From: an uncultured Streptococcus sp.
Lineage (GTDB): Bacteria > Bacillota > Bacilli > Lactobacillales > Streptococcaceae
Direction: 5' to 3'
DNA: 64,000 nt
Assembly (NCBI RefSeq): GCF_963521255.1
Contig: NZ_CAUQTU010000010.1
Location: 3,866 to 67,865 of the forward strand
Within the stretch, counting starts at the first letter, position 1; each line of letters opens with the position of its first letter. This document shows, piece after piece, positions 12,616 to 46,756 of the stretch. Made by a program: the position numbers and the translations under genes. The notes under the pieces were generated by a model. That model searched no databases. It saw only the letters and a program-made list of their open reading frames with translations, and was not told where the DNA came from.

Positions 12616-12638
12616 GCAAAAACTTTTGAGCTCCCATC

Positions 12639-14292: not shown

Positions 14293-14319
14293 ATAGAGTT
14301 TTTTTGACATTGACTTTAG

Positions 14320-14346: not shown

Positions 14347-14382
14347 GTTATGCACTATCGACATTCTAGAAAGGGCAATCAT

Positions 14383-15909: not shown

Positions 15910-16060
15910 ATTTGCAACATAGCAGATAGGTGGGACAAAAACACAATTTTAGGAGAAAAAGAAGTAAATCTTCCCACAATAAAACGCATACTATCAAGTT
16001 TTTTGCACACCTGATATTATGCGTTTGTCAGATTTTAAAGGCTTTTTCTCAGCCTTCATT

Positions 16061-23883: not shown

Positions 23884-24690
23884 ATGAGTATTAAACTAAT
23901 CGCCGTCGATATCGACGGAACCCTAGTCAACAGCCAAAAGGAAATCACTCCTGAAGTCTTTTCTGCCATCCAAGATGCCAAAGAAGCTGGTGTCAAAGTC
24001 GTGATTGCAACTGGCCGCCCTATCGCAGGTGTTGCCAAACTTCTGGACGACCTGCAGTTGAGAGATGAAGGTGACTATGTTGTGACCTTCAACGGTGCCC
24101 TTGTCCAAAAAACTGCTACTGGCCATAAGATTATCAGCGAATCCTTGACCTATGAGGATTATCTAGATATGGAATTTCTCAGTCGCAAACTCGGTGTCCA
24201 CATGCACGCCATTACCAAGGATGGTATCTATACTGCTAATCGCAATATCGGAAAATATACGGTTCACGAATCAACCCTCGTCAGCATGCCCATCTTCTAC
24301 CGCACCCCTGAAGAAATGGCTGGCAAAGAAATTGTCAAATGTATGTTTATCGATGAACCAGAAATTCTCGATGCTGCCATTGAAAAGATTCCAGCCGAAT
24401 TTTACGAACGCTACTCCATCAACAAATCCGCTCCTTTCTACCTCGAACTCCTTAAAAAGAATGTAGATAAGGGTTCAGCCATCACTCACTTGGCTGAAAA
24501 ACTAGGATTGACCAAAGATGAAACCATGGCTATCGGTGACGAAGAAAATGACCGTGCCATGCTGGAAGTCGTTGGAAACCCCGTTGTCATGGAAAATGGA
24601 AATCCAGAACTCAAAAAAATCGCCAAATACATCACCAAAACAAATGACGAATCCGGCGTTGCCCATGCTATTCGTACATGGGTACTGTAA
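23884..24690 (+). CDS. Cof-type HAD-IIB sugar phosphatase
   Basis: 268 aa. Motifs DIDGTL and GDEENDRAM. Confidence 0.85.
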   Translation: MSIKLIAVDIDGTLVNSQKEITPEVFSAIQDAKEAGVKVVIATGRPIAGVAKLLDDLQLRDEGDYVVTFNGALVQKTATGHKIISESLTYEDYLDMEFLSRKLGVHMHAITKDGIYTANRNIGKYTVHESTLVSMPIFYRTPEEMAGKEIVKCMFIDEPEILDAAIEKIPAEFYERYSINKSAPFYLELLKKNVDKGSAITHLAEKLGLTKDETMAIGDEENDRAMLEVVGNPVVMENGNPELKKIAKYITKTNDESGVAHAIRTWVL

Positions 24691-24706: not shown

Positions 24707-24733
24707 GAAAACCGCTCAGCTGAGCGGTTTTTA
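24707..24733 (+). terminator. intrinsic terminator after the Cof gene
   Basis: aaaACCGCTCAGCTGAGCGGTtttt, a perfect palindromic stem. Confidence 0.85.
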
Positions 24734-24846
24734 GTATGAACATGTCATAATAAGAGTAAATTAATAAATTGAATGGCTGTTGCACAGTCACTAAAATCTT
24801 GAGAGTACAAAAACAAAATGAACAGCTGTTATATCAAATGGAGACT

Positions 24847-25503
24847 TTATAACTCTGGTAATTCTACCTTCAAGCTCATATCTGCAGGCTGCAACACTTT
24901 CTGAACCGCAGCAAGAAAGGCCAATCCATTATCCGATGGAGAATACTGGAATGTGATATGGATGACTTTTTGGTCAAAGTTATCGCCATATCGCTCCACA
25001 TACTGCTTGCTTTCGAGGAAGTAAATGTAGTTGTTGAGTTTTTCTTGCAGAATTTCAAGATGGACTGCTTCTATTTCTTCCTGCCAGCCGACTGGATCCA
25101 CCAGAAGAAGCTCTAAATGACTATCAACTATACCAATTGCATCAAGTTCGCTAGGTTCTAGTTCTGAAACAATGGCTTTATATAACAATTCTTCAAATTC
25201 TTTTTCGGAAAAATAGTGTCTCTTTCTATCTGTATCAATAAGAAGAAATTCTGGATTATCTCTTAAAAATTGTATGTTAGCATCTTCTTGACTAATTTTT
25301 AATTTCCAAAATCCGAAATTAGCATAATTAATTAATTCTTCACCATCATGTTCTCCCGACATGTAACTATCTGCAGCTTCTTTGGGAATTTCTCTAATCA
25401 CTTCTGGGCAGGTAATATTAAAAGTTGGATAACGCAAGAAATACTTATCACCATCTTGACAAATTTCCAACATATCTTTTTGACTAGTATAAATCGACTT
25501 CAT
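24847..25503 (-). CDS. hypothetical two-domain cytoplasmic protein, last gene of the island
   Basis: 218-aa ORF whose start overlaps the stop of the upstream membrane-protein gene by 20 nt. The acidic C-terminal half (VDPVGWQEEIEAVHLEILQEKLNNYIYFLES) is reminiscent of small immunity-type domains. No motif was recognised with certainty. Confidence 0.6.
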   Translation of the reverse strand: MKSIYTSQKDMLEICQDGDKYFLRYPTFNITCPEVIREIPKEAADSYMSGEHDGEELINYANFGFWKLKISQEDANIQFLRDNPEFLLIDTDRKRHYFSEKEFEELLYKAIVSELEPSELDAIGIVDSHLELLLVDPVGWQEEIEAVHLEILQEKLNNYIYFLESKQYVERYGDNFDQKVIHITFQYSPSDNGLAFLAAVQKVLQPADMSLKVELPEL

Positions 25504-26404
25504 TTTTAATAGCTATTAGCTCCTTGTATTTTTTTAAATATTTTTTTCCATACCACTCTTCTAAAGTTTTTCCCTCCCACTCGCGGTATTCTTCAGGATA
25601 TTTCCATTTATAGTAGGCTTGTAGCATATAGGGAAACATGAAATAAACTTCAAAAGCAGCAACTAAAATATTAAGAATCAGTATTGAAGCCAAAATACCG
25701 AGTCCTCCAATCAAATTATTCCTATTCTCCATCGAACTTGAGAAAAAAATACGAATGACTAGCCAAATTGCTACAACCAAACCACCATACTTGGCAATTA
25801 TGCTAAACATCTTGCCGAAGAATTTATCACTAAAACTTTTCTTTAGAGTTGTCCCATATAACAAAATTCTTAATGACTCACACTCAGAAAGAATCATTAA
25901 AATAATTATTAATAATATCAATCCTACAAAAGTGAACATTCCCCAAAATCCAGCTACTGCATAAATTAAGTTTAGAGAAAAAAGATTGAGTTCAACAACT
26001 AGCCAGATAATAAAGGTAACCATAAAATGGAATTGGCCCCTATAAATCAAAATAAACTGCTGGTTGTATCGCTTCCCTAGTATAATCAATAAAAGCCATA
26101 TTGCAAGTGCTATCCAAAATACCCAGTACGGAAGAAAATTAATGTCGGGTAAAGGGACTGTTAAATCTCTAGGATCAGAATGGTAAAATAAATAATCATT
26201 TAAAGCTATAATCAACCAATTGGGACCAATTATAAATAGGAAAGTCAGAATTACCAGCCAAACATATGATTTTTTTGTTCCTCTAAATTGCTCTTTTTTT
26301 AAAGCATCTTGGTAATTGTCCCGAGCAAATTTCCCTGAGACGCCATCATCTAATAAATTTAAACTCAACTCAAAACTTGCTTTAAATAGTGACTTTTTTG
26401 TCAT
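25484..26404 (-). CDS. six-TM membrane protein, paralog 1 of 3 (unknown family)
   Basis: ATG 26404 behind GAGGA (MTKKSLFKASFELSLNLLDDG). Six hydrophobic segments. Conserved tail YKWKYPEEYREWEGKTLEEWYGKKYLKKYKEL. Confidence 0.75.
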   Translation of the reverse strand: MTKKSLFKASFELSLNLLDDGVSGKFARDNYQDALKKEQFRGTKKSYVWLVILTFLFIIGPNWLIIALNDYLFYHSDPRDLTVPLPDINFLPYWVFWIALAIWLLLIILGKRYNQQFILIYRGQFHFMVTFIIWLVVELNLFSLNLIYAVAGFWGMFTFVGLILLIIILMILSECESLRILLYGTTLKKSFSDKFFGKMFSIIAKYGGLVVAIWLVIRIFFSSSMENRNNLIGGLGILASILILNILVAAFEVYFMFPYMLQAYYKWKYPEEYREWEGKTLEEWYGKKYLKKYKELIAIKNEVDLY

Positions 26405-26408
26405 AAGT

Positions 26409-27305
26409 TTAATCCTCAATCTTCTTTTCTACTAATTCTGAGTGCTTTTTCAAGTATCTCTTTCCATACCATTCTTCCACTGATTTTCCTTCCCATTCAC
26501 GGTATTCTTCGGAATATTTCCATTTGTAGAATCCTTGTAAATAACTAGGAAATTCGATGTAAATTAGCATAGCAATCACAGCAATATTTAGGATAATCCA
26601 TGTTATCAAAAGACCTAATCCTTCCAATAAAGTTGAAAATTTTATGGAAAAACTTTTTATAATAAAGTTTATAATGACTCCAATTCCCAAAAAACTCATT
26701 CCATAAATCGCTATCTTATTGACAATTTTGTTTCGAAGAGAAGAGCCACTTCCATTACCATACATCAGTTTTGTAAGACTTTCAATTTCAAGGCTAAACA
26801 TAAAATAGGCTAATATAGTAATAAAAACAAAAATCGCAGCAACCATCCAAATAGATAAAGTTGGTAATGACATATCAATCGCTAACAGATTAAATTCAAG
26901 ACTAAGCCAAATTAGAAATGTGATGACATGAAAATGATTACGATAAGGCAGTATAAAAGCTTTTCTAAAAACTTTACCAATCAATATGATAAATACCCAA
27001 ATTAAGAAACAGACTAGATATACCTCAGCTGTTAGTAATGGATGTTGATAGATAGGCAATCTTAAATCTTTAGGATCAGAGTTGTGCAAGGACAGCGAGA
27101 AAACAAGAATCATAAAGTTTATAATGACAGGACCGATAAGAGTGAAAACAATATTCTGAATATGAAGAACTAGTTTAGACTTTCCTTCCCTATAATATGT
27201 TTCTAACTTAGAGAAAACATTTCCTTTCTGATACTGTAAAAAACCATCATCTTCTAGATTAAGACTTTCTTCAAAACTTGCACTAAAAATTGATTTCTTC
27301 TTCAT
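26409..27305 (-). CDS. six-TM membrane protein, paralog 2 of 3
   Basis: ATG 27305 behind AGGTGA (MKKKSIFSASFEESLNLEDDG). Same architecture, with tail YKWKYSEEYREWEGKSVEEWYGKRYLKKHSEL. Confidence 0.75.
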   Translation of the reverse strand: MKKKSIFSASFEESLNLEDDGFLQYQKGNVFSKLETYYREGKSKLVLHIQNIVFTLIGPVIINFMILVFSLSLHNSDPKDLRLPIYQHPLLTAEVYLVCFLIWVFIILIGKVFRKAFILPYRNHFHVITFLIWLSLEFNLLAIDMSLPTLSIWMVAAIFVFITILAYFMFSLEIESLTKLMYGNGSGSSLRNKIVNKIAIYGMSFLGIGVIINFIIKSFSIKFSTLLEGLGLLITWIILNIAVIAMLIYIEFPSYLQGFYKWKYSEEYREWEGKSVEEWYGKRYLKKHSELVEKKIED

Positions 27306-27321
27306 ACTTTTCACCTAAATC

Positions 27322-28203
27322 CTATTTTAATAACTCCTTGTGTTTTTTTAAATATTTTTTTCCATACCATTCTTCTACTGTTTTCCCTTCCCACTCGCGG
27401 TATTCTTCAGGGTATTTCCACTTGTAATAGCCTTCTAAAAAGAAAGGAAACTCCATGAATACAATCATGGCGATTACACCAATATTTGATAGAATCCAAA
27501 ATATAAAGAGACCTAAAAGAGTTACGGAAGAGGAAAAATTAATAGAAAAAGCTTTGAAAATATAATTAACAATCACAGCCAAGCCCAATATACCTGCTCC
27601 ATAAATAGCAAGGCCTTTGGCAATTTTATCGAGTAAGGTAGGTGACTTAACTTCTCCATACATTCGTTTTTTCAAACTTCTAACCTCTGTTCTTAACATT
27701 ACATAAGTCAACAATACTTGAAGCCCAAAAAGTACTAAGATCCCCCATATTGATAATATAGGTAAAGACATAGTTGTTGCCAGCAGATTAAATTCAAACA
27801 CAAACCATATTATAAAAGTTATAATATGAAATCGATAACGATAAGGGAGAATAAACGTCCGTTTAAAGAATTTACCCATTAATACCAATAACAACCAAAT
27901 TAACAAGCAAATCAAATAAAGCTCGACTGTTAGCAAAGGATACTGAGAAACTGGTAACCTTAAATCTTTAGGATCAGAATTTTGCAATGATAGGGTAACA
28001 GCAAGGAGCATGAAATTTGCACCTATCGGAAACAACAGACTAAAAATAAAAGTTTTAATACCAAACCAAAAAGAGGGGCTCCCTTTCTTAAAGGCTTTCC
28101 CAAGTTTATTATAATAATCTTTTTTCTGATACTGTAAAAACCCATCATCTAATAAATTTAAACTCTCCTCAAAACTTGCTTTAAAAATTGATTTCTTTTT
28201 CAT
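27322..28203 (-). CDS. six-TM membrane protein, paralog 3 of 3
   Basis: ATG 28203 (MKKKSIFKASFEESLNLLDDG). Tail YKWKYPEEYREWEGKTVEEWYGKKYLKKHKEL. The ORF-track N-terminal extension overlaps the upstream gene and was dropped. Confidence 0.75.
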   Translation of the reverse strand: MKKKSIFKASFEESLNLLDDGFLQYQKKDYYNKLGKAFKKGSPSFWFGIKTFIFSLLFPIGANFMLLAVTLSLQNSDPKDLRLPVSQYPLLTVELYLICLLIWLLLVLMGKFFKRTFILPYRYRFHIITFIIWFVFEFNLLATTMSLPILSIWGILVLFGLQVLLTYVMLRTEVRSLKKRMYGEVKSPTLLDKIAKGLAIYGAGILGLAVIVNYIFKAFSINFSSSVTLLGLFIFWILSNIGVIAMIVFMEFPFFLEGYYKWKYPEEYREWEGKTVEEWYGKKYLKKHKELLK

Positions 28204-28219
28204 AAACAGATACCTAAAT

Positions 28220-28903
28220 TTAATTTTTACTTTGATTTGATAAAACATCAACTATCTCATATTCCCGTTCTTCTCCAGGTGCAAATGCAATGTTGACAGT
28301 CCCTAGAAATATGAACATTATTAACATCATTAAACAAAGCATGCTAATGTTCTTCAAATATATGAATGCCAGAGCAAATATAAGAGTTAAGGCAAAAATA
28401 CATAGTCGCAATAGAAACATTTTGACATAAAAACGTAATGAATTTACTGGTTTTATCTTAAAATTAATAGATTGCTCCAACGATCTATTGAGTAATTTTT
28501 CCAAAGTTTTTTTCTTTTTAGAATATAAAAGTTGAAGCAAACTAAAAGACAATAATAGACCAATAACTACTAAAACCAAGCTAGTTACTATCGAAAGATT
28601 CACATAAAAGTTGGCAAATAAATCAATATGATTCATACGAGCCCAGGCATTCACAAAAACTGCTAATCCTGCGGCTAATGACGTTGGAAGGATAAATTTG
28701 CTCGCCTTAGAGTTTTTTTCTTCGATTTTAACAAGTTCTTCATCTGAAATAGCATAAACTTTCTGATAAAAATACCAGTTTAGAGGCAAACAGAAGTATC
28801 CGAGAAAATGTTTAGGAGATCTATCTAATAGATACTGTCTCCCCTGATAATGAAATAATAGGTATCGAAGATTCCCTTTATAATATAATTTTATTTTTTG
28901 CAT
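28220..28903 (-). CDS. tandem five-TM membrane protein (DUF443/TsaI-like)
   Basis: 227 aa. N-terminus MQKIKLYYKGNLRYLLFHYQGRQYLLDRSPKH followed by 4-5 TM helices. Paralogous to the next gene. Confidence 0.7.
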   Translation of the reverse strand: MQKIKLYYKGNLRYLLFHYQGRQYLLDRSPKHFLGYFCLPLNWYFYQKVYAISDEELVKIEEKNSKASKFILPTSLAAGLAVFVNAWARMNHIDLFANFYVNLSIVTSLVLVVIGLLLSFSLLQLLYSKKKKTLEKLLNRSLEQSINFKIKPVNSLRFYVKMFLLRLCIFALTLIFALAFIYLKNISMLCLMMLIMFIFLGTVNIAFAPGEEREYEIVDVLSNQSKN

Positions 28904-28975
28904 TCTAATCCTTACTAATCTAAAAAAACATGAGTTCTTCCAAACTATGAGGAGTATCTCGATATAATCTACATC

Positions 28976-29641
28976 TTATTTTAGTATTTTATCATTTATT
29001 TTATATAAGTGATGACTTTCAGTTCCAAATGCAACATTAGAAGCCGATAAATATAGAAAGATGATGGCATTTGCCATTAAACCAAAAAGTAAGTTCCCTG
29101 AGTAAAAATAATACAAGGACATAAAAAATGCTAGTCCACCAAAAACCACTATAAATCCTAGCAACTGTTTAAAGTCAATTTTTACTGGCGTGATTTTATA
29201 GTATTGTAAATGCCTAAGTTCACGCCCTAGCAAGGAGGCCATCCTTCTTTTCCGAGAATAGTAAAATAATTCAACCAGAACATATGTTAAAAGAAAAGTC
29301 ATTAAAAAGAGTGCCACTGTCGTAAAACTTGAAAGATTCGTTTCAAAATACTTAGTAATATCAATCTTGTTCACGCGTAACCAATTATATAAAAAGACAC
29401 TCAGTCCAGCACCGAGTGAAGCTGAAACAGTGAGTTTTGTATCACGTCCATTTTTTTCTTTTATTTTACAGTACTCATCCGATGTAATAGGATACACATG
29501 TTGAAAGAAAAGCAAATTTATAGGTGGAAAAAGATATCCTATCAAATGACATGGCCTTCTATCAAGTAAATAGTATTGATGATTGAATTCAAATACTAAA
29601 TAACGAAAATTTCCATAAGTAAAACGAATTTTTTCCATCAT
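28976..29641 (-). CDS. tandem five-TM membrane protein (DUF443/TsaI-like)
   Basis: 221 aa. N-terminus MMEKIRFTYGNFRYLVFEFNHQYYLLDRRPCH, with the same layout as 28220..28903. Confidence 0.7.
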   Translation of the reverse strand: MMEKIRFTYGNFRYLVFEFNHQYYLLDRRPCHLIGYLFPPINLLFFQHVYPITSDEYCKIKEKNGRDTKLTVSASLGAGLSVFLYNWLRVNKIDITKYFETNLSSFTTVALFLMTFLLTYVLVELFYYSRKRRMASLLGRELRHLQYYKITPVKIDFKQLLGFIVVFGGLAFFMSLYYFYSGNLLFGLMANAIIFLYLSASNVAFGTESHHLYKINDKILK

Positions 29642-29712
29642 TTCTCATTAGTCACAAACAAATCACTTTTACTTATTCCCTCTGAACTATACCCTAACAA
29701 GGTAGCATCATA

Positions 29713-30252
29713 TTAATCTCCTAATCCATTTGCATCATTCAGTTGAATCATCCATTCCTTAATAGTTTTTAATTTTACGATTGATACATAGAAGGTTTGA
29801 AATATTCTGTTTGGCAGGCAAAATAGATTGTATTCATTGTCACTTGCATCTATGTAATAAATCTTGTTTAATTTTGTAGAAAAATTTATTTTTCCTTTAG
29901 TTCTAGAATCAACCGAATAAAAGTCATCCAGTTGTTCTCTAGTTAAGTATTCTTTCAATATTTCAATATCTTCTATATCATTTATTAAAGTCATCAGTGG
30001 AAATTCAAAATCTGTAACTCCTCTTTTAACAAATATAGCAAAATATAGTTGCGCTAACTCCTTGTTACTAATTTTACAATATTCTAAAATAACCCCTCTT
30101 TCATTTACTAAAATGAAAAATTCGTCTTCTCTTTTTTCTAGAATATAAATCATATCCACATTATCATATGCCTGCAACTTGTTATTTATTGAAACAATTT
30201 CGACATTGCTGATAAACCTTTTCAAACTTACAATATATTCATTATCAAACAT
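29713..30252 (-). CDS. hypothetical cytoplasmic protein
   Basis: 179-181 aa ORF. ATG 30252 lies 6 nt after GAGGAA. No recognisable motif. Confidence 0.6.
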   Translation of the reverse strand: MFDNEYIVSLKRFISNVEIVSINNKLQAYDNVDMIYILEKREDEFFILVNERGVILEYCKISNKELAQLYFAIFVKRGVTDFEFPLMTLINDIEDIEILKEYLTREQLDDFYSVDSRTKGKINFSTKLNKIYYIDASDNEYNLFCLPNRIFQTFYVSIVKLKTIKEWMIQLNDANGLGD

Positions 30253-30373
30253 TATCATTTCCTCGAAACAGATTCCATTTTTTTCTTCTATTAGATTGAA
30301 ACCACAGTATCACAACATTACTTTTCAATAGAATTTAAAAAGTTATCAATAAATTGTGGCCCAATAATAAGAA

Positions 30374-31369
30374 CTATTTTGATTGTTTATATAAGTGTTC
30401 TAGTAATTGCCGACATTTTTCGTCAATCAATTCTCTATTAGCCAGCTGATAAATCCATTTTTCTGGGATGCCTTCCAGTTGATAGTGGGCTCCAGCCAAG
30501 GTACCTGTAATGGCACCGATGGTATCTGTATCCCCTCCAAGATTAATGGCTTTTAGAACAGCTTCTTCAAAACTATCTGTTGTACCTAAACACCAGAGAC
30601 AAGCCTTCAAGGTATCAACAACATAGCCTGTGGAAGCAATATCTTCCATAGATTTTTGATAAAATTCTCTATCAAATATTTCTCTAAAATGTTCCTGATA
30701 CTCTTCCCAGTATTCTGATTTTTTCTTGAAATAATCTTCAAGATAAGGTTTTGATTGACAAAGTAATTTTTCTAAACGAATGTTAAGAAGAAAACCGATT
30801 AAAAGCTGGACATAAAGAATAGATGCCACGATAGACCTTGGATGAGCATGAGTCAGCTTAGTATATTTCTCAATTATTTTTGATCTATAACTGAAATCAA
30901 AATTTTCATATAAGAGCAAAGCTAAGGGAGATATCCTCATCAGAGCTCCATTGCCATTATCTCTCTCACTAGTTCCTCCACATTTCTCTGGAGAGACTCC
31001 TGCCAAATACCGTTCAATCGCCTGATTAGTCGCAACACCAATATCAAAGCAGTATCCAAAAGGTGTGAGGTAGCCCTGACGATAAGCTACAAATTTATCC
31101 ATCAACCCATTCAAATCAGAATCCTCACATAGGTGTTCAATAAGTGCTAAGGATAAAGAAGTATCATCTGACCAGGTACCAGCTGGTTGATTATAGGTTC
31201 CATAACCCACCATATCTGAAATATGATAGGTATCTCTATTTCTGAACTCTACAGGGACTCCCAGTGCATCACCTATAGCTAGACCAAAGATAACCGAATT
31301 TATCTTTTGTTTAAGATTATATCTTCTATACTGATTTGAATCATCTTCCCATTTATCTTTTAATCTCAT
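30374..31369 (-). CDS. ADP-ribosylglycohydrolase (ARH/DraG family)
   Basis: 331 aa. Family motifs GDALGVPVEF near the N-terminus, WSDDTS, and GGDTDTIGAITGTLAGA near the C-terminus (binuclear metal site). AGGAG Shine-Dalgarno. Confidence 0.85.
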   Translation of the reverse strand: MRLKDKWEDDSNQYRRYNLKQKINSVIFGLAIGDALGVPVEFRNRDTYHISDMVGYGTYNQPAGTWSDDTSLSLALIEHLCEDSDLNGLMDKFVAYRQGYLTPFGYCFDIGVATNQAIERYLAGVSPEKCGGTSERDNGNGALMRISPLALLLYENFDFSYRSKIIEKYTKLTHAHPRSIVASILYVQLLIGFLLNIRLEKLLCQSKPYLEDYFKKKSEYWEEYQEHFREIFDREFYQKSMEDIASTGYVVDTLKACLWCLGTTDSFEEAVLKAINLGGDTDTIGAITGTLAGAHYQLEGIPEKWIYQLANRELIDEKCRQLLEHLYKQSK

Positions 31370-31553
31370 AGTCTTCTCCTATTGTATTAAATCCATTTTT
31401 AGAATAATTTTATCATCAACTATCTGCTGATTATTTCTTCCCTGAAACATATTTATCTTCTCTTTTGTCCTAACCAAACTTTAGCTAGTTCTCAATGACC
31501 TAGAAAGCTAAACAGATCTTTTACAAAATTCACATATCCTGCCTCAAATTAAA

Positions 31554-32201
31554 TCATTTTCCTTCCTCGTCCCATAGCGGCGAAGGATAGGGGTGTGAAA
31601 AGCCAAGTTCATTTGCCAACTGTTCCGCATGAACTGTCTGACTAAGAATCTTAAAGAATTCATCCTTTGCTTCCTTCATCGTATTAAACTCCCATGTTTT
31701 CCCTACAATATATGAGCGTTCATCCCTACTGTTAATCTGAAACTTACCATTTTTAAAAAACAAATGTGTTGCCCACGGTTTCCTGCTATCTTCATCAAAC
31801 AAGACATAATACAAGCTTTCAAGACCTCGTTCTTTAATCTCCTTTTCCACTATATTTTTTAAAGTTTCGATATCGATATCTAGTTTACCCCATAGTGGAG
31901 AAGGATATTGTGGCACAAAGCCATTGGAAATATAGTACTTATTTCTTGAAACGGTATGGTCTAACAATTCCAAAAATTTTTCTTTTGCATCAGGAAAATC
32001 AGAATACTCAAAAACTCTTCCTTTTCCAGCCCTATCCCTTGTTAAATATACCTCATACTTATGAGTTTGAGGATTGAGTTCAATTCTCGTTTCCCACTCC
32101 CAGGGATTATGGTCATTGAAAATTGAAAATCTCAAACTATCATAGCCTCGTTTTTGAATCTCCGATAAAAGCTCCGATCGTTCTTGCTCTCTATTAAACA
32201 T
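31554..32201 (-). CDS. two-module protein (A-module + B-module of an unknown about 105-aa family ending in SPLW)
   Basis: Residues 1-106 resemble the product of 34464..34793. Residues 107-215 resemble the product of 34809..35135. Both halves end in YPSPLW(G/D). Confidence 0.75.
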   Translation of the reverse strand: MFNREQERSELLSEIQKRGYDSLRFSIFNDHNPWEWETRIELNPQTHKYEVYLTRDRAGKGRVFEYSDFPDAKEKFLELLDHTVSRNKYYISNGFVPQYPSPLWGKLDIDIETLKNIVEKEIKERGLESLYYVLFDEDSRKPWATHLFFKNGKFQINSRDERSYIVGKTWEFNTMKEAKDEFFKILSQTVHAEQLANELGFSHPYPSPLWDEEGK

Positions 32202-32230
32202 TGTTCCTTTTCTCCTCTAAGATTTTGAGA

Positions 32231-32581
32231 CTACAACCATCCCTTGGCTTTTAAAAACTTATCTGGAATACGAAGCTCGAGCTCATCCTTGATTCCTTTT
32301 AGGTATTCATCCCAATCTGTTATTTGGCTGTATACAGCTGGCTCTTTGGTCAGGGATAAGTTCACTTCTTTCGTTAATACAATGAAGAACTCGCAGAGGT
32401 CATTCTCATAATCAAATTCAATAGTAAAGTAATCGTAAGACTTAAAGTCTATTTTAAACGCATGATAGTTGGCTTCTTCAACAACATCATAAATACTAGA
32501 AGAATCCATCTTATGATCAAAATAAGTTCGAATCATTCGGCTCGTTTCTACAGCAAACTTATCGGTTTCATTTAATTTCAA
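32231..32581 (-). CDS. hypothetical small acidic protein
   Basis: 116-aa ORF with a TTG start 9 nt after GAGGAG. Confidence 0.55.
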   Translation of the reverse strand: MKLNETDKFAVETSRMIRTYFDHKMDSSSIYDVVEEANYHAFKIDFKSYDYFTIEFDYENDLCEFFIVLTKEVNLSLTKEPAVYSQITDWDEYLKGIKDELELRIPDKFLKAKGWL

Positions 32582-32626
32582 AATATTATTCTCCTCAAAG
32601 ACATCATTTCTTTAAAATCTATTTGG

Positions 32627-33028
32627 TCAATTCTTTAATAAAACTTCCGCTCTATCTGAATCTATAAAGTCTTTCAATAGTTGCAAGGTGTGTTCAACAG
32701 ACTTTTCATCACGGCCATACACTCTTCTTATACTCTTAACATCAATAACCTTGGATAAAAAAGTGATTGAAAATCTCTGTTCATCCATTTGAGTGAACCA
32801 AATGTTAAACAAGCCACCCTCTCCAACTTCCAATTGCCTATTTTTACCGGTTGATGATATCCCCATCGTCATATGATATCCCTTATACGCGAATGGAAAA
32901 TTAAAATTTTCATCTTCTCCTTCATGAATGGCAATCGTATCAAGGTCAATCGAAAAAATTTTCTCTAAAACTTGTTTGACATTCTGATAACCTAAACTAT
33001 CTCTTGTAGGTAAGTAACCTTCGCTCAT
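32627..33028 (-). CDS. hypothetical small protein
   Basis: 133-aa ORF with a GGAGG Shine-Dalgarno. Confidence 0.6.
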   Translation of the reverse strand: MSEGYLPTRDSLGYQNVKQVLEKIFSIDLDTIAIHEGEDENFNFPFAYKGYHMTMGISSTGKNRQLEVGEGGLFNIWFTQMDEQRFSITFLSKVIDVKSIRRVYGRDEKSVEHTLQLLKDFIDSDRAEVLLKN

Positions 33029-33119
33029 TTACGAGACCTCCAAATATTTTCGAAATTCTCAAACTTCTATTACTTTGATAGAGTCAAATCAACTATTTTC
33101 CCCGTCTTTATATCGACTT

Positions 33120-33392
33120 TTAATCTTCTGTCGAATAAAGCCAGTCTTCTCTCAAAGTCATCTGTTCAAAGGGATAACTATTATTGCTGTATCCACTATT
33201 ATTTATCGTCCAGACTACATTTCCACTCGCATCAATCCTTAAAATGTTATTCTTTTCACTCTCATTATCAAAAGGAATCTCCAATAAAACAATAAATTCG
33301 TCACCGTGTTCAATTATATTTCGGATTTCAAATGTAAAAGATTTGATAATTTCACCATTTTCTATTAGCTGATGTTTTTTATATTCTAGCAT
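33120..33392 (-). CDS. hypothetical small protein
   Basis: 90-aa ORF in the same orientation and with the same codon style as its neighbours. Confidence 0.5.
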   Translation of the reverse strand: MLEYKKHQLIENGEIIKSFTFEIRNIIEHGDEFIVLLEIPFDNESEKNNILRIDASGNVVWTINNSGYSNNSYPFEQMTLREDWLYSTED

Positions 33393-33485
33393 TGTATCAA
33401 CCTTTCATCTGAGAATACCTACGTTAATCATTCTTTTAATCGTTTCTTCGTATTCTTGTTAAATCAATATCCTTTCATCACACTG

Positions 33486-33959
33486 CTAATCCTGTAACAT
33501 AGCTAAAAACTCTGTAAAGTTATTAGCTACAAACTCTATAGCAGGATCCAGCTCGTACGATTCCTCATGATACCAGATACACATGCTTGGATTTTCGGAA
33601 TTCTCGACATAATTTAGACAGAGAAAATCTCCACCATACAATGCTACTATGGGAATCAACTCAAATCCCAAAATATCTTCATGGACAAACAATCTTTCAT
33701 CCAGTTGGGACATTACAACATCAATGTCATACATGCCAAGTGGATTGTCTTTTGAATTCTCTAACACACACAAGAATCGCTCGATTAAAAAGGACCTATT
33801 TGTTACTGAAAATAAATTTTTGGAAGGGCGAAAACCATTTTTTCTCATTATAAAATTCTTATAATCATCAGGCAGTTTAACTCTCCACGCTACTTCTCTT
33901 TCATTTAATAGCGCATCAGTTGGCAAGGGGGAGATAATCGATTGATCTTGTTGTGTCAT
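33486..33959 (-). CDS. SMI1/KNR4 (SUKH-1) family immunity-type protein
   Basis: 157 aa. KLPDDYKNFIMRKNGF near the N-terminus, IPIVALYGGDFLCLNY, and a C-terminal FTEFLAMLQ. This is the typical SUKH layout. Confidence 0.8.
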   Translation of the reverse strand: MTQQDQSIISPLPTDALLNEREVAWRVKLPDDYKNFIMRKNGFRPSKNLFSVTNRSFLIERFLCVLENSKDNPLGMYDIDVVMSQLDERLFVHEDILGFELIPIVALYGGDFLCLNYVENSENPSMCIWYHEESYELDPAIEFVANNFTEFLAMLQD

Positions 33960-33968
33960 ATTCTTCTC

Positions 33969-34412
33969 CTACTGTTCCTCGCTTTTCACTTCCTCAAACC
34001 ATTTTTCAAACTCTAGACGTGGAAGCAATTCTTCATCCTTCTCATAACGCCCTTCATAGCTATAGCGACTATTAAGGGTATTTTTCTGTGCATCATAAAT
34101 CAACCACATCTCAGTCGGATGTTCACGATTATATTCTTGGCAAACCTCCTGCAATTTCTGCATATCTTTAGTTCCATATTTCAATAAAGCAAATGCCATA
34201 TTATCAGAATCATCTACTTTTTTTGTCGCAACTTCATTAACTTTTTCCATTCCAATTACAATACCATTAATTTTATAAAATGGCTTAAAACTATACAAAC
34301 TGTCCGCTATCGCATAGATATATACTTTTTCTGCTTGATTTTGGACATATTCCATTGCTAACGAAATCATACCTACTTGAACTTCCATAAATTTATCTTC
34401 GAATTGTGTCAT
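33969..34412 (-). CDS. YezG/EsaG (DUF600)-like immunity-type protein
   Basis: 147 aa. AEKVYIYAIAD...FKPFYKING and EMWLIYDAQKNTLNSRYSYE recall the WEKVY.YA / two-half layout of DUF600 proteins. This assignment is from memory only. Confidence 0.5.
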   Translation of the reverse strand: MTQFEDKFMEVQVGMISLAMEYVQNQAEKVYIYAIADSLYSFKPFYKINGIVIGMEKVNEVATKKVDDSDNMAFALLKYGTKDMQKLQEVCQEYNREHPTEMWLIYDAQKNTLNSRYSYEGRYEKDEELLPRLEFEKWFEEVKSEEQ

Positions 34413-34463
34413 AATATCTCCTTGTATTTGTATCTTATTGATTCTAACTTATCTTAGCACTTG

Positions 34464-34793
34464 TTATTCTGTTTCATTATCCCATAATGGAGAGGAGTAT
34501 TCAGGAACTTCCCCATTTTCTACAAAAAGTTTATTTATTTCTAGAGTAAGATCTAGTTTTTCTAGAAATTTATTTTTAGCATCCTCAAAATTATAGAATT
34601 CCAATTTTTTATTAAAACTTGCTCGATCCATGGTAGCGTAGACATTGTACACTTGCTTAGAATCGTCATATTCGATTACCACTTCCCATTCACTAGGACC
34701 ATATTCGTTAAAGATAGAATACCTCAAGCTCTCGTAACCTAAATCATGAATGGCTGACAACAGTTCTAAACGTTCTTGGGCTTCATCTCTCAT
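34464..34793 (-). CDS. single A-module protein (SPLW family)
   Basis: 109 aa. MRDEAQERLELLSAIHDLGYESLRYSIFNE...EYSSPLWDNETE. AAGGAGG Shine-Dalgarno. Confidence 0.7.
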   Translation of the reverse strand: MRDEAQERLELLSAIHDLGYESLRYSIFNEYGPSEWEVVIEYDDSKQVYNVYATMDRASFNKKLEFYNFEDAKNKFLEKLDLTLEINKLFVENGEVPEYSSPLWDNETE

Positions 34794-34808
34794 CTTTGCT
34801 TGACCTCC

Positions 34809-35135
34809 TTATTTATCCCACAAACTACATGAATAGTAGGGTGAATCTCCATTCTGTACAAAATATCTGTTCATTTCGATAAAAGACTCCATTAAATTAA
34901 GAAAAAATAGTTTTGCCTCTTCAAAATTGTCAAACTCCCTTGTTTTCCCCATTATATAGGTCCGGTCGTCTCGACTATTTACCATAAACTTCCCATCTCG
35001 ATAGTATAGATGTATGGCCCAAAGTTGACTACTATGTTCATCAAATAGAGCATAATAAAGATTTTCAAAGCCTTTTTCTCTGATTTCTTTTTCTACATCT
35101 TGTTTTAACAAATCTAAATTCAAATTATTATTCAT
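34809..35135 (-). CDS. single B-module protein (SPLW family)
   Basis: 108 aa. LLKQDVEKEIREKGFENLYYALFDE...GKFMVNSRDDRTYIMGKTREF...YYSCSLWDK. Confidence 0.65.
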   Translation of the reverse strand: MNNNLNLDLLKQDVEKEIREKGFENLYYALFDEHSSQLWAIHLYYRDGKFMVNSRDDRTYIMGKTREFDNFEEAKLFFLNLMESFIEMNRYFVQNGDSPYYSCSLWDK

Positions 35136-35185
35136 ATTATTGTCCCAATTAACAGTTTATCTATAGAGTGTTACAAGTCCCATCA

Positions 35186-35728
35186 CTATTTCTCAATAAT
35201 GGAAAAACGTTCATTTTTTTGATATTTTTGATTCAATCTTTCCAGCTGGTTCATTGGTTTTATTTTAACAAGACCGTTTGGGAAAGTGATGCTGTCGTTC
35301 AATTCCTCTTGATAATCCTTAATTCCTTTAGCAATTGCTTGGGCAACTGTCGACGTATGGATTGTAAAACTAGCTATATTTTTTTCTTGCATAAAAAGGA
35401 TTGCATCAAAAAACAAAACCGAAATATACAAATCAACAGCAGAACGCTGCGATAACTCTATAAGATCGCCTTCTAATATATCTTGAATCTTATCAATATC
35501 ATTCTGCTTGTAGAAATACTCAGCTAATACTTGGCAAATATCAGTCGGAAAAAGATCTGGTACAGAGGTCGGAGGATCTATGCGATATCTTTTTTCACCT
35601 CTCAAAATCCCTGCAACATTGCCAGCTTGGATAGCTTCTAACAAGAGTTTTCTGTAATTTTTCATTTGATAATCTCTCTTATCTCCAATTTCGAAGAGAC
35701 TTAGTTCGTTCTCTGCAAAATTTACCAT
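35186..35728 (-). CDS. hypothetical protein
   Basis: 180-aa ORF with a weak Shine-Dalgarno and no motif recognised. Confidence 0.5.
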   Translation of the reverse strand: MVNFAENELSLFEIGDKRDYQMKNYRKLLLEAIQAGNVAGILRGEKRYRIDPPTSVPDLFPTDICQVLAEYFYKQNDIDKIQDILEGDLIELSQRSAVDLYISVLFFDAILFMQEKNIASFTIHTSTVAQAIAKGIKDYQEELNDSITFPNGLVKIKPMNQLERLNQKYQKNERFSIIEK

Positions 35729-35780
35729 TTTGTTTTTATTAAGATTAGTTTCCGCTTTTTAATCGCTACTCGCTAGAATT

Positions 35781-36143
35781 TCAGCACCTTCGGGTAAATA
35801 TTTCTTCCAGTTCGGCCTTTGTGAATAAGCCTTGCGCTTTAGGATTTCCTCTTAAAGCTTCTGGATATTGCCTCAGGAAATTTCTATCAGCTTCTTCTTG
35901 TGTCACGTTCGGTGGCCAATAATCGTATTTAACCTTGCAAGATATTTCAAGTAGAGTCCGTTCTCCACTCTCTAGTAAGGTAAATAATTCATTTGGTAAA
36001 TCATAGACTGCTAACCAAGAAGCCACGGTTCCTTCTTCAAAAACTAAATAATACTTGTCCTCATTTCTCCAGATGGATTTCCCGTATCCTTTAACTTCTT
36101 CAAACTTAATAACATCTTCCCATTCTAGTTTTGTTGATTTCAT
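35781..36143 (-). CDS. hypothetical protein, paralog pair member (KLxWEDVIxFxEVKGYGKSIWRNEDKYYLV family)
   Basis: 120 aa. The first 75 residues are close to those of 36156..36578, and the DNA is near-identical over about 55 nt. Confidence 0.7.
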   Translation of the reverse strand: MKSTKLEWEDVIKFEEVKGYGKSIWRNEDKYYLVFEEGTVASWLAVYDLPNELFTLLESGERTLLEISCKVKYDYWPPNVTQEEADRNFLRQYPEALRGNPKAQGLFTKAELEEIFTRRC

Positions 36144-36155
36144 TCTATACCTCTT

Positions 36156-36578
36156 TTACTTAAGTGGCGATACATAATCATCTGGAAGTTTGCCCATTGA
36201 TTCTATCCATTGTTGTTCAGCTTGGGGAATAAGTTTTTCAAGTTCTTTATTACTAAAAAGCAACTGATTTTTACGGTTGGAAATCAGCACAATTGGCTTT
36301 TTTCTAGCTCTATCTTTTCTAATTTCGTTCTTTTCTTCTTCCGTCGGTGGCCAACAATCGTTCTGAATCTTCCAAGATACTTCGACTAGTGATCTCTCTC
36401 CACTATCTAATAGGGAGAATAATTCCTGGGGTAAATCATAGACAACTAACCAAGAAGCTATGGTCCCTTCTTCTAAAACCAAATAATACTTGTCCTCATT
36501 TCTCCAGATGGATTTCCCGTATCCTTTAACTTCTTTGAACTGGATAACATCTTCCCATTGTAGTTTTGTTGGTTTCAT
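36156..36578 (-). CDS. hypothetical protein, paralog pair member
   Basis: Start moved to ATG 36578 (MKPTKLQWEDV) behind GGAG, by analogy with the paralog (MKSTKLEWEDV). Confidence 0.7.
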   Translation of the reverse strand: MKPTKLQWEDVIQFKEVKGYGKSIWRNEDKYYLVLEEGTIASWLVVYDLPQELFSLLDSGERSLVEVSWKIQNDCWPPTEEEKNEIRKDRARKKPIVLISNRKNQLLFSNKELEKLIPQAEQQWIESMGKLPDDYVSPLK

Positions 36579-36648
36579 TTGTTTTCTCCTAGTATAAATT
36601 CTTCTCTCAACCAAAATATCGTAAAAATCAGGTTTCTATTTCTCTTCA

Positions 36649-37206
36649 TCAATAGGCTACGCCTTCTTTTACCCATTTTCTAGTTTCTAAATCTAAATTA
36701 AAATAGAAATCACTTCGACCAGATTTATCAAAACAATCCTCTTTAAGAGCCTCGCATACAATTCTCAGTTTCTTCTTACTTATCTCAGAAATATATAACA
36801 TAGTAAATCCTGCAGGAGATTCAATTTGATCCATTTTTTCACCTTCTAAATTATAAATCTCTAATTCTGATGGTATATCAAAATTGCTTGATGAGCGACA
36901 TATACTGAAGATACGCTGATTGTTAGGGTTAAAGCAAAGATGATGTAAATGTTGAAAAATAACCTGATGCTTCCCATTATGATTCCAATCTAGGGTTCCT
37001 TCTAGTAGATTTTGTTTCCCTAACAATTTTCCTTCTAAACTAAAGTAGAAAATGATTTTGCTTACAAAGTTTTCTCCACTATAGACGATAACAATGTTCT
37101 CATCTTTATTATATTCCGCATGAATGATATCTGGTAGTTCTATCTTTATTACAGAACCATCCCACTCCCATATGACCATCCGGTCACTGTAATCGATTTT
37201 CATCAT
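36649..37206 (-). CDS. hypothetical protein
   Basis: 185-aa ORF with an AGGAG Shine-Dalgarno. Confidence 0.6.
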   Translation of the reverse strand: MMKIDYSDRMVIWEWDGSVIKIELPDIIHAEYNKDENIVIVYSGENFVSKIIFYFSLEGKLLGKQNLLEGTLDWNHNGKHQVIFQHLHHLCFNPNNQRIFSICRSSSNFDIPSELEIYNLEGEKMDQIESPAGFTMLYISEISKKKLRIVCEALKEDCFDKSGRSDFYFNLDLETRKWVKEGVAY

Positions 37207-37223
37207 CCTTCTCCTAGTCTAAC

Positions 37224-37457
37224 TCAAATAAATTCAATCTGTATTGTTTGCTCAGTCATCATGGAATCCACTTCCTCGACAAGTTTATCTATCTCGTTCT
37301 GTGTGATAGGAATGTGATTGTAAGGTGGCTCCCAATTCTGTATACTTGACCTATATACAAGAAAACTATTATCAGTCAGCAGTTCTCCCTCTGCTTTTAA
37401 AACATAGCCATTTTCATAGTCAAAAGTAATGTTACCGCTTGTCCCAGAAATTTTCAT
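37224..37457 (-). CDS. hypothetical small protein, first gene of the island
   Basis: 77-aa ORF with a GAAGGA Shine-Dalgarno. Confidence 0.55.
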   Translation of the reverse strand: MKISGTSGNITFDYENGYVLKAEGELLTDNSFLVYRSSIQNWEPPYNHIPITQNEIDKLVEEVDSMMTEQTIQIEFI

Positions 37458-37577
37458 TCTATTTCCTTCTTTACTAAAACATCATTATTCTTCTTAGGAA
37501 TCTAAATCCTAATACTCAATCCAACCCCATAATAAGGAGAGAAATTCCCCTCCAAATAAGCACTTATACTTTCTCCT

Positions 37578-37612
37578 ATTATACCACACCTCCATTTTCA
37601 TCTGAAATGGTT
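37578..37612 (-). promoter_or_regulatory. candidate promoter of the island operon
   Basis: Minus strand reads TTCAGA, about 17-18 nt, then TGgTATAAT (extended -10 at 37578-37586), about 120 nt upstream of the first island gene. Confidence 0.5.
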
Positions 37613-37628
37613 TCCATTTTAGGACAAG

Positions 37629-37652
37629 AAAAAAACACTGATCATTCAGTGC
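37629..37652 (-). terminator. intrinsic terminator after tRNA-Arg
   Basis: Minus strand reads CACTGA-atga-TCAGTG followed by TTTTTTT. Confidence 0.7.
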
Positions 37653-37669
37653 TTTTTCGATTGAACTAT

Positions 37670-37741
37670 TGCCCCCTGCCGGAATCGAACCAGCAACTAC
37701 TCCTTAGGAGGGAGTTGTTATATCCATTGAACTAAGGGAGC
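37670..37741 (-). tRNA. tRNA-Arg (anticodon CCU)
   Basis: Minus strand reads GCTCCCTTAGTTCAATGGATATAACAACTCCCTCCTAAGGAGTAGTTGCTGGTTCGATTCCGGCAGGGGGCA. It folds with a 7-bp acceptor stem, an anticodon stem ACTCC/GGAGT with loop CTCCTAA, and a T-arm GCTGG-TTCGATT-CCGGC. CCA is not encoded. Confidence 0.9.
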
Positions 37742-37783: not shown

Positions 37784-38131
37784 TTAACGACGGATTTCTT
37801 TGATACGAGCTGCCTTACCTTGAAGAGCACGCAAGTAGTACAATTTCGCACGACGTACTTTACCGTAACGAACAACTTCAATCTTTTCAACACGTGGAGT
37901 GTGGATTGGGAAGATACGCTCAACACCTACACCGTTAGAGATTTTACGAACTGTGTAGTTTTCTGAGATGCCAGCACCTTTACGTGCGATAACAACACCT
38001 TCAAAAATCTGGATACGTTCACGGTTACCTTCGACAACTTTCGCGTGTACACGAACAGTGTCACCAGGACGGAATGATGGGATATCTGTACGAAGTTGAC
38101 CTTCAGTCAAGCTTTGGATTAATGGATTCAT
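37784..38131 (-). CDS. rplS: 50S ribosomal protein L19
   Basis: 115 aa. [29 protein letters not shown] is a canonical L19 start. Confidence 0.97.
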
Positions 38132-42987: not shown

Positions 42988-43158
42988 TTACTCTTCCTTA
43001 TCTTGACTTTCAGTTCCTTTAACTGCTTTTTTAAATTCAGATAGCATTTTACCGATTGACTCGCCTAGTTCAGGCAATCGTTTTGGTCCAAAGATCAAGA
43101 GAGCTCCTAAAACGATGATAATCAATCCTGGTGCTCCGATATCACGTAAGATTCCCAT
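42988..43158 (-). CDS. tatA: twin-arginine translocase subunit TatA (56 aa, too short for the ORF track)
   Basis: Own translation: MGILRDIGAPGLIIIVLGALLIFGPKRLPELGESIGKMLSEFKKAVKGTESQDKEE*. It has the canonical TatA TM helix plus the FGPKRLPELG hinge. GGAGAGAGAA Shine-Dalgarno. The start overlaps the tatC end by 17 nt. Confidence 0.85.
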   Translation of the reverse strand: MGILRDIGAPGLIIIVLGALLIFGPKRLPELGESIGKMLSEFKKAVKGTESQDKEE

Positions 43159-46751: not shown

Positions 46752-46756
46752 GACTC

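Follow-up and report, generated by a model that had tools for sequence, protein, structure and literature searches.

A 64,000-nucleotide stretch of DNA from an uncultured Streptococcus sp. (the window) carries, between the gene for a Cof-type hydrolase and tRNA-Arg(CCU), an A+T-rich block of small genes, which we analyzed as a candidate island of toxin-immunity genes. The block holds 21 tightly spaced genes, all on the minus strand (24847-37457) and numbered from g01 at the Cof side to g21 at the tRNA side. The original prediction, made from the sequence alone, had counted 20 genes; our open reading frame (ORF) inventory gives 21, and gene calls made independently on near-identical metagenome contigs gave the same number. 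Coding sequence makes up about 91% of the block, gaps between genes reach 184 bp at most, and the genes come from at least 13 unrelated families. From the tRNA side to the Cof side they are as follows (aa, amino acids; E, expect value; dN/dS, ratio of nonsynonymous to synonymous substitution rates).

37224-37457, minus strand: g21, Imm74 (Tci1-type), 77 aa; Pfam E 2.7e-9, 37.4 bits against a cut-off of 27.1
36649-37203, minus strand: g20, acidic protein of 184 aa; no Pfam or NCBIfam match; dN/dS 0.41
36156-36578, minus strand: g19, 140 aa; paralogue of g18, 62% identical
35781-36143, minus strand: g18, 120 aa; family of g19 and of the N-terminal half of g01
35186-35728, minus strand: g17, 180 aa, no named family; dN/dS 0.23
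34809-35135, minus strand: g16, Imm59; Pfam E 1.5e-33
34464-34793, minus strand: g15, Imm59; Pfam E 5.4e-35
33969-34412, minus strand: g14, predicted EsaG/BH3703 (DUF600, Imm36) fold, from an AlphaFold (AF2) model, Foldseek and gene context
33486-33959, minus strand: g13, SUKH-1/SMI1-KNR4; Pfam SMI1_KNR4 E 3.8e-17, SUKH_6 E 2.4e-16
33120-33392, minus strand: g12, 90 aa; DUF7957 in precomputed annotation; dN/dS 0.43
32627-33028, minus strand: g11, 133 aa; no family match; dN/dS 0.20
32231-32581, minus strand: g10, 116 aa, no named family; 1-6 tandem copies in other arrays
31554-32201, minus strand: g09, tandem double Imm59; Pfam E 4e-61 over two stretches
30374-31369, minus strand: g08, ADP-ribosylglycohydrolase; Pfam ADP_ribosyl_GH E 6.9e-71, 239.7 bits
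29713-30252, minus strand: g07, 179 aa, no named family
28976-29638, minus strand: g06, DUF443 (TsaI-family) polytopic membrane protein; Pfam E 3.3e-14, 53.6 bits against a cut-off of 26.2
28220-28903, minus strand: g05, DUF443 (TsaI-family) polytopic membrane protein, 37% identical to g06; Pfam E 2.7e-16, 60.4 bits against a cut-off of 26.2
25484-28203, minus strand: g02, g03 and g04, tandem paralogues of 293-306 aa, an unnamed membrane-protein family
24847-25503, minus strand: g01, two domains; N-terminal half related to g18/g19 (26% identical to g18), C-terminal half DUF6572 (Pfam E 1.6e-28)

The block has a G+C content of 32.9%; the remainder of the window has 39.8%, the 10 kb to the left of the block 41.9% and the 10 kb to its right 39.7%. 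The value of the block is the lowest among all 12.9-kb frames of the window, in agreement with the original impression that the block is more A+T-rich than both flanks. Isoelectric points are acidic for the soluble products (4.1-5.5) and basic for the membrane proteins. None of the 21 ORFs is disrupted, and the 17 genes for which suitable pairs were available are under purifying selection (dN/dS of 0.12-0.43 in 17 of 17).

Nine genes match named immunity families by Pfam: Imm74, Imm59 (three genes), SUKH, DUF443 (two genes), ADP_ribosyl_GH and DUF6572. The SUKH/SMI1-KNR4 protein at 33486-33959 and the ADP-ribosylglycohydrolase (ARH) at 30374-31369 had been recognized in the original prediction, as had two tandem multi-transmembrane proteins at 28220-29641, both of which Pfam places in DUF443. 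The ARH encoded by g08 contains GDALG and GGDTDT, the metal-binding motifs of the ARH fold. Its nearest relatives in the PDB are Listeria Lmo0067 (E 1.5e-88) and the ARH of 6dre/6drh (E 1e-46), which we take to be an ADP-ribosyltransferase (ART)/ARH pair of the Tre1-Tri1 type. Imm74 has been described as the primary immunity family against ADP-ribosyl cyclase (ARC) toxins, and ADP-ribosylglycohydrolase is listed as an enzymatic immunity protein against ART toxins (PMC3482391). Tci1, an Imm74 protein, partially rescued E. coli from the LXG-ARC toxin Tac1 of S. parasanguinis (PMC12356396). In S. suis, an Imm59 protein neutralizes a type VIIb secretion system (T7SSb) effector, and DUF6572 is the conserved, EssC-binding 'EIC-CR' tail of T7SSb immunity proteins (PMC12558993). 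TsaI, a DUF443 protein, neutralizes TspA (PMC9484751). NCBIfam gave zero matches for ten unassigned products, and a sequence search of the PDB gave zero for g14, g21, g07 and the glycine-zipper toxin of locus L062 described below.

The product of g14 did not match the DUF600 profile at E <= 0.05 in Pfam or NCBIfam. Its AlphaFold model, built with 28 homologues, has a predicted local distance difference test (pLDDT) score of 73 and a predicted template modeling (pTM) score of 0.71, and its top six Foldseek matches are EsaG (8guo, 8gup) and BH3703/DUF600, with E of 5e-5 to 1e-3 and template modeling (TM) scores of 0.49-0.58. Homologues of g14 lie 9-12 bp after three toxins with PT-TG and Endonuclea_NS_2 domains, the nuclease type of EsaD/YeeF. 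The YezG/EsaG-like label first given to 33969-34412 is thus borne out by fold and by gene context, on which it rests, the Pfam and NCBIfam profiles being silent.

The three membrane proteins g02-04 are 40-57% identical to one another and have about six hydrophobic segments each by hydropathy. They share an N-terminal motif, SIFxASFEESLNL, and a C-terminal one, YKWKYxEEYRxWEGKSxEEWYGKKY. The family is small, with 123 clusters among 1.84 billion representative proteins in an exhaustive search, and it has no relative in Pfam or the PDB.

To place the island proteins beside toxins, we used a toxin encoded within a related island (L037; loci and contigs fetched for comparison carry L numbers) as a probe against one genome per species, which yielded 72 loci from S. 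mitis, S. oralis, S. infantis, S. vulneris, S. suis, Granulicatella and others. The 21 island proteins were then compared with all ORFs of these loci. The loci are arrays of LXG toxins whose N-terminal two-thirds are alike and whose C-termini differ, and genes of the island families sit -25 to +35 bp past the toxin stop codons. Eight families adjoin LXG or PT-TG toxins through at least one homologue of at least 33% identity: g21, g08, g07, g10, g17, g18/19 together with g01, Imm59, and g14. A ninth family (g02-04) is linked to a toxin at one locus, L062, and a tenth (g20) by one 29%-identical homologue.

Several of these pairs have a recognizable toxin domain. The product of g21 is about 51% identical to those of Imm74 genes that start 3 bp after LXG-ARC toxins (L037, L047, L069, L105, L109 and L111). 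In S. oralis L061, a 97.6%-identical homologue of g08 starts 10 bp past an LXG-ADPrib_exo_Tox toxin (toxin domain E 1.3e-34); the toxin-linked homologues of g08 are about 96-97% identical at L060, L061 and L078 and 64% identical at L088 and L116. Homologues of g07 begin 0 bp after LXG toxins (L046, 93%; L108, 90%; L097 and L101, 44%), and the partner toxin of L108, the one scanned, carries a TNT domain (Pfam E 2.8e-25). Imm59 homologues adjoin toxins at L057, L061, L067, L083, L094 and L100, the two partner toxins scanned being TNT-like; for g15, the LXG-TNT-like toxin of L057 is followed at 0 bp by a homologue of 67% identity. Homologues of the g01 type are found -3 to +19 bp after LXG toxins at 12 or more loci, and the partner toxin of an IFS-DUF6572 gene matches NADase_NGA (Pfam).

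For other families the neighboring toxin is of unspecified kind. Homologues of g10 overlap the stop codon of an LXG toxin by 13 or 25 bp (L048, L051, L067, L072, L076 and L107). Those of g17 lie 2 bp after LXG toxins at L075, L093 and L108 (56-57% identical) and in S. suis L088 (26%), and those of g18/19 lie -18 to +2 bp after LXG toxins at L046, L050, L055, L065, L067, L079, L084, L096 and L105. The C-terminal domains of the g10, g17 and g18/19 partner toxins gave no Pfam match. In LXG toxins paired with homologues of these three genes, respectively (L048:9848-12055, L075:9848-11911 and L046:9686-11842), the domains outside Pfam span about 250-350 aa and are candidate new toxin activities. 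In S. suis L086, an LXG toxin is followed at a distance of 10 bp by the homologue of g20 (29% identical, E 2e-21).

In S. oralis O3-1 (L062), homologues of g04 (84% identical) and g02 (91%) directly follow a 481-aa protein with a C-terminal glycine zipper. The order of genes there is a 1458-aa FtsK/SpoIIIE ATPase of EssC size, two Lap-like genes of about 100 aa, the glycine-zipper gene, the g04 and g02 homologues, two DUF4176 genes, a YwqH-like gene and an LXG toxin. Since this is one locus, the link between g02/g04 and a glycine-zipper toxin is suggestive. The arrangement agrees with published cases: polytopic ExiCD protects against extracellular EsxX, and orphan copies of it occur in antitoxin islands (PMC12744356), and in S. 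gallolyticus the gene next downstream of telE encodes a six-pass protein (PMC10434224).

No DUF443 gene was found in the fetched toxin loci, where no scan was aimed at TspA-like genes. Homologues of g11 and g12 were seen only inside arrays and never directly after a toxin, either in a metagenome scan with g11 or in the toxin loci, and the AF2 model of g11 was poor (pLDDT 61), its fold search returning noise. The original statement that more than half of the genes belong to no recognizable family therefore needs revision: most are now linked to toxins, and g11 and g12 are what is left of it.

The probe toxin itself is a 519-aa ORF inside the island of metagenome contig L037 (4880-6439). Its LXG match starts at profile position 52, the gene being 51 codons short of the full-length form, and a hydrophobic stretch rich in glycine occupies the middle of the protein. 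At the C-terminus it shares about 95% identity with PDB 9ouf and matches the ARC toxin 9ro8 as well. A second Imm74 gene lies 3 bp past the toxin, and it is with the product of this gene that g21 shares 51% identity. Relatives with an LXG gene at the locus, which the original prediction had envisaged, thus exist in this one, 51-codon-short form. In the same toxin (residues about 205-260) and in most toxins of L046-L117, a glycine-rich hydrophobic segment, GWKDLAIGVVTVAIGALAIWATMGAATPLVVGAGLTAGIGTAAYG, is conserved between the LXG and the variable domains and may be a membrane-insertion or translocation module. In the tandem LXG arrays of L046, L050, L067 and L107, some copies start 51 codons late and others are split into two ORFs, which suggests that they are 'orphan' toxin cassettes downstream of a complete gene.

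We found no toxin, secretion or mobility gene in the block by ORF inventory and Pfam scans, as originally stated. A tblastn search of 137 LXG/PT-TG toxin, Lap and EssC/T7SS proteins from related loci against the 64 kb agreed, giving no match to a toxin, a toxin remnant or a T7SS gene; the best E was 0.006, inside carB. No physical linkage to an ess/T7SS cluster or a toxin locus (EssC, Lap, WXG and LXG searched) exists within the window, and the flanks are housekeeping. The large ORFs elsewhere in it encode housekeeping proteins such as CarB, Nramp, TatC/FTR1/Dyp/imelysin, GlmU and LysS. Conversely, rplS or Cof was present in 0 of the 72 toxin loci. A location of toxin arrays at the rplS-Cof site was accordingly rejected: it was found in 0 of 72 genome loci, and a toxin inside the island was found only on metagenome contig L037.

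Comparison with genomes that encode an L19 protein identical to that of the window defined the insertion. The features that border it are as follows.

37784-38131: rplS
37670-37741, minus strand: tRNA-Arg(CCU), found by ARAGORN and by Rfam (tRNA, 59 bits) and aligned with empty sites; the island starts at 37669, the next base past the tRNA 3' end
23884-24690, plus strand: Cof-type HAD hydrolase
22567-23871: HD-domain gene

Base-level alignment with empty-site genomes gave window positions 24733-37669 as the inserted segment; the limits first proposed, 24734-37628, were exact at the Cof end and fell 41 bp short at the tRNA end. In many of the genomes compared, the tRNA is followed by 13 bp and then by the identical Cof terminator hairpin, so that the block is indeed an insertion 3' of the tRNA, as had been supposed. 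The synteny common to both sides comprises L31, DHH, flavodoxin, chorismate mutase, two CrcB genes, L19 and tRNA-Arg on one flank and Cof, HD, DUF1934, YlxM and Ffh on the other. Other cargo occupies the rplS-tRNA-Arg/Cof junction in L001, L005, L007, L009 and L010 (about 10460-17000 in each), including a 332-aa SAP-domain protein, an Rgg regulator with choline-binding proteins, and HicAB and RelB/YafQ toxin-antitoxin pairs; the junction is a general hotspot. One choline-binding protein at the junction of relatives carries a caspase-like Peptidase_C14 domain.

Pfam scans detected no integrase, recombinase or transposase in the block. In a repeat search, the 3' end of the tRNA did not recur as a direct repeat at the distal border, the repeats present being internal homology blocks of tandem paralogues only. 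An integrase-type island model was dropped because the repeat search showed no att-like duplication of the tRNA end. The nearest recombinase gene, for a serine resolvase, belongs to a separate islet some 10 kb away (47926-48513).

At the same site, related islands are present in S. peroris, in many S. mitis-group genomes and in oral metagenomes; that of metagenome scaffold ERZ28649045 scaffold_23 is 99-100% identical to the island of the window. In the collection searched, 343 indexed blocks contain the exact g21 protein and 440 contigs a g03 homologue; the latter count serves for prevalence only, as the first homologue search with g03 gave only relatives that were at least 94% identical. The array is mosaic: g18/19 are present in one to four copies, Imm59 in two or three and the six-segment genes in three or four, and SUKH/g14, ARH, UCP033725, Imm63-like, IFS and IFS-DUF6572 are optional modules. 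The order g14 (one to five copies), g13, g12 (optional), g11, g10 (one to six copies), g09 is conserved in the arrays. S. peroris has four tandem copies of g14 and lacks g20, which is the second gene of the array in islands of the S. mitis type. Traces of other elements were also found. The L022 island retains a 53-aa NADase_NGA remnant between IFS-DUF6572 genes; in the L037 island the LXG-ARC toxin and Imm74 gene are followed by an integrative element with integrase, HTH_17 and Rep genes (4880-9072); and in L027 (1-3082) a prophage lies in the island copy, its holin and amidase genes adjoining a truncated Imm59 gene.

Segments of the island, among them g18-g17-g16-g15 and g13-g12-g11-g10-g09, recur in the same gene order at the tail ends of toxin arrays (L058, L111 and L084), and these shared segments point to exchange between the two kinds of locus. 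Tandem paralogues share homology blocks at their 5' and 3' ends; similar blocks have been reported to drive recombination among esaG and tipC genes (PMC9484751).

The two outcomes that the original prediction had named as contrary to an immunity island were not found. No island product matched a housekeeping or phage-structural family in Pfam (PADLOC and PHROGs were not searched), and a phage or housekeeping origin of the block was rejected on the same grounds, within the same limits. Nor is the block a fixed one of ordinary composition, as relatives have an empty site or different cargo there, and the array itself is mosaic.

Signals that may govern expression of the array are the following.

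37629-37651, minus strand: terminator-like hairpin CACTGAATGATCAGTG followed by T7, closing the rplS-tRNA unit (sequence and scan)
37578-37606, minus strand: promoter-like site TTCAGA-17-TATAAT with extended -10 (TGgTATAAT) upstream of g21, the top score in the scan; putative function
24708-24732, no strand assigned: bidirectional terminator-like hairpin AAAAA-CCGCTCAGCTGAGCGG-TTTT, shared with the convergent Cof gene, at the distal insertion edge; it also follows the tRNA in empty-site genomes

The hairpin at 37629-37651 is kept in the diverged S. peroris leader through base changes that preserve pairing. The element TGGTATAAT is conserved in all island leaders, exactly so even in the S. peroris leader, which is otherwise diverged, and a ribosome-binding site precedes g21. 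The scan detected no terminator-like site in the intergenic gaps within the island; with the end at the Cof-shared hairpin, the whole array is likely to be a single long operon. A small hairpin, GGAGGGGAATTTCTCTCC, lies in the leader at 37536-37553, between the predicted promoter and g21; it is kept in S. mitis islands and absent from the S. peroris leader. Since the Rfam scan matched only the tRNA, this hairpin is not a known riboswitch or leader.

Two other parts of the window drew attention. Positions 47926-51183 form a second A+T-rich patch (G+C 0.32-0.37) with the serine resolvase gene (47926-48513), unassigned ORFs at 48715-49308 and 49662-50126, and a DUF6287 protein gene (50131-51183). 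In L031 the genes of this patch adjoin rpmE, together with a choline-binding protein gene, so the patch looks like another small variable islet. Positions 43142-47629 encode TatC, an FTR1-type permease, a Dyp-type peroxidase and imelysin, an EfeUOB-like, Tat-linked iron-uptake cluster, of which the fetched S. pneumoniae-like relatives have only Dyp gene fragments at the matching place.

Taken together, we put at about 0.8 the probability that the block is a heterogeneous polyimmunity island, directed mostly against toxins (LXG and PT-TG/YeeF types) that streptococci and the bacteria around them export by T7SSb, and without a toxin of its own. Family matches, toxin adjacency and the tblastn search support the original reading of an orphan immunity-gene island against polymorphic or T7SSb-LXG toxins, with the word orphan applying to the 64-kb window. 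We propose that an extended -10 promoter of the island's own, just past the rplS-tRNA-Arg terminator, drives transcription of the array, probably as one long operon ending at the terminator shared with Cof. Each product would neutralize one incoming toxin class. The small acidic cytoplasmic proteins would bind and block toxin domains: Imm74 would act against ADP-ribosyl cyclase, Imm59 and g07 against TNT-type NADases, g14 against EsaD-type nucleases, and SUKH, g10, g17 and g18/19 against toxin domains of unspecified kind. The g08 enzyme would strip ADP-ribose added by LXG-ART toxins, and the DUF443 proteins g05/g06 and the six-segment proteins g02-04 would shield the membrane from depolarizing glycine-zipper toxins arriving from outside. 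By neutralizing these classes the island would let the cell survive contact with T7SSb-armed competitors without the cost of weapons. Homologous recombination may renew its repertoire in this naturally transformable group, acting between tandem paralogues, with effector arrays of the T7SS and through the conserved rplS/Cof flanks, and the island would not move by site-specific integration.

Several points weigh against this reading. We infer the immunity function of the 21 products, and the promoter and the operon structure are predictions. Orphan status covers 64 kb, and a T7SSb with some of the cognate toxins may be encoded elsewhere in the genome. An identity of just 51% between g21 and the toxin-linked Imm74 proteins allows no specificity to be assigned to it. 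The putative toxin link of g20 is a single 29%-identical homologue, that of g02 and g04, two of the three g02-04 paralogues, comes from the one locus L062 and is suggestive, and g11 and g12 have neither a family nor a toxin neighbor, so that array position is what suggests a role for g12. In S. gallolyticus, a six-transmembrane protein encoded directly downstream of telE gave E. coli no protection against cytoplasmic TelE (PMC10434224). DUF6572 is reported to act in effector export and not in neutralization, so that immunity alone does not account for its being kept in an array without toxins.

This last point touches the alternative that the island is not orphan at all: the strain would have its own T7SSb and LXG toxins elsewhere, and the island would store cognate immunity genes or extra copies of them. 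Large LXG toxin arrays do occur in many S. mitis and S. oralis genomes, g01 retains the EssC-binding DUF6572, which makes most sense in a T7SS-positive cell, and g18-g17-g16-g15 is syntenic with toxin-array tails (L058, L111). However, in every toxin array examined the immunity gene adjoins its toxin at -25 to +35 bp, whereas the 64 kb contain no toxin, Lap or EssC sequence and none of the 72 toxin loci includes rplS or Cof. The island moreover spans at least seven toxin classes, vs two to four downstream immunity families per toxin array examined. We consider a storage role for a resident T7SSb unlikely.

A polyimmunity island is also favored over two further accounts. Toxin remnants in related islands (the 53-aa NADase_NGA fragment of L022 and the 51-codon-short LXG toxin of L037) would fit a decaying, neutral remnant of a T7SS effector array whose toxins were deleted and which has no current function. 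That is very improbable given 21 intact ORFs, dN/dS of 0.12-0.43 in all 17 testable genes, a leader promoter element conserved across species, and maintenance of the array at this site in many strains of at least two species. The position directly 3' of a tRNA gene, the low G+C content and the strain-variable presence recall a tRNA-targeted mobile genomic island or an anti-phage defense island acquired by site-specific integration. The block has neither an integrase, recombinase or transposase gene nor a repeat of the tRNA end at its distal boundary, and its Pfam families include no phage- or defense-type family (PADLOC was not searched), those found being toxin-immunity families; this is the least probable of the explanations considered.

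The polyimmunity reading places the island among known kinds of locus. Like the heterogeneous polyimmunity loci of Zhang et al. 2012 (PMC3482391), it is a tandem array of structurally unrelated immunity genes with no full-length toxin, its content varies between close strains, and paralogues have expanded in tandem inside it. Unlike those loci, it is specific to T7SSb (LXG/PT-TG) toxins of oral streptococci and sits at a fixed chromosomal hotspot (rplS-tRNA-Arg/Cof); g02-04, g07, g10, g11, g17, g18/19 and g20 are absent from that catalogue and from Pfam. The T7SSb immunity islands of S. aureus (esaG/DUF600 and tsaI/DUF443 strings; ExiCD; PMC9484751, PMC12744356) likewise include DUF443 and EsaG-fold genes and encode polytopic membrane immunity proteins; their genes, too, carry homology blocks at the ends, and tandem paralogues change in copy number. 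Orphan T7SS immunity gene copies are known there from cells that lack the matching toxin. The S. aureus strings are for the most part homogeneous and have ess/T7SS or tspA loci as neighbors, whereas this island is heterogeneous (at least 13 families) with no T7SS gene within 64 kb. As in the Tac1-Tci1 pair (PMC12356396), g21 is an Imm74 gene, and its L037 paralogue follows a Tac1-like toxin; as in pairs of the Tre1-Tri1 type, g08 is related to 6dre (E 1e-46) and has a homologue of about 97% identity that follows an LXG-ART toxin. In contrast to both, g21 and g08 stand in the window without their toxins.

The island differs from the acquired interbacterial defense (AID) clusters of gut Bacteroidales in having no recombinase or mobile-element gene and in that the toxins are T7SSb substrates. 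Those strain-variable clusters reportedly hold orphan immunity genes against effectors of the type VI secretion systems of other strains and species, and are said to ride on mobile elements or to be associated with recombinases. A more far-reaching joint reading would make the island a T7SS-independent, transformation-exchangeable defense arsenal of commensal mitis-group streptococci, a Gram-positive counterpart of AID without mobile-element machinery. In it, g02-04, g07, g10, g11, g17, g18/19 and g20 would be immunity families new to databases, g02-04 would be specific for external glycine-zipper toxins of the TelE type, and the partners of g10, g17 and g18/19 would be LXG C-terminal domains of unspecified activity. 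We offer this combination tentatively and think it possible rather than probable. We found no published description of this particular mitis-group island in the searchable literature, so the island itself seems undescribed, although polyimmunity loci, S. aureus T7 immunity islands and Bacteroidales AID clusters make its kind already known. Its value accordingly lies in a well-resolved example and in testable pairs, not in a new principle.

In the dense biofilms inhabited by oral streptococci, persistence is decided by contact-dependent T7SSb toxins. The pairs suggested here are ARH with LXG-ART toxins, g07 and Imm59 with TNT NADases, EsaG-like proteins with EsaD-type nucleases, and the six-segment family with glycine-zipper toxins; three further families are paired with LXG toxins of unspecified activity. 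If the reading is true, a chromosomal hotspot where about 20-30 immunity genes gather, directed at seven or more toxin classes, would account for the way these bacteria withstand the weapons of their neighbors.

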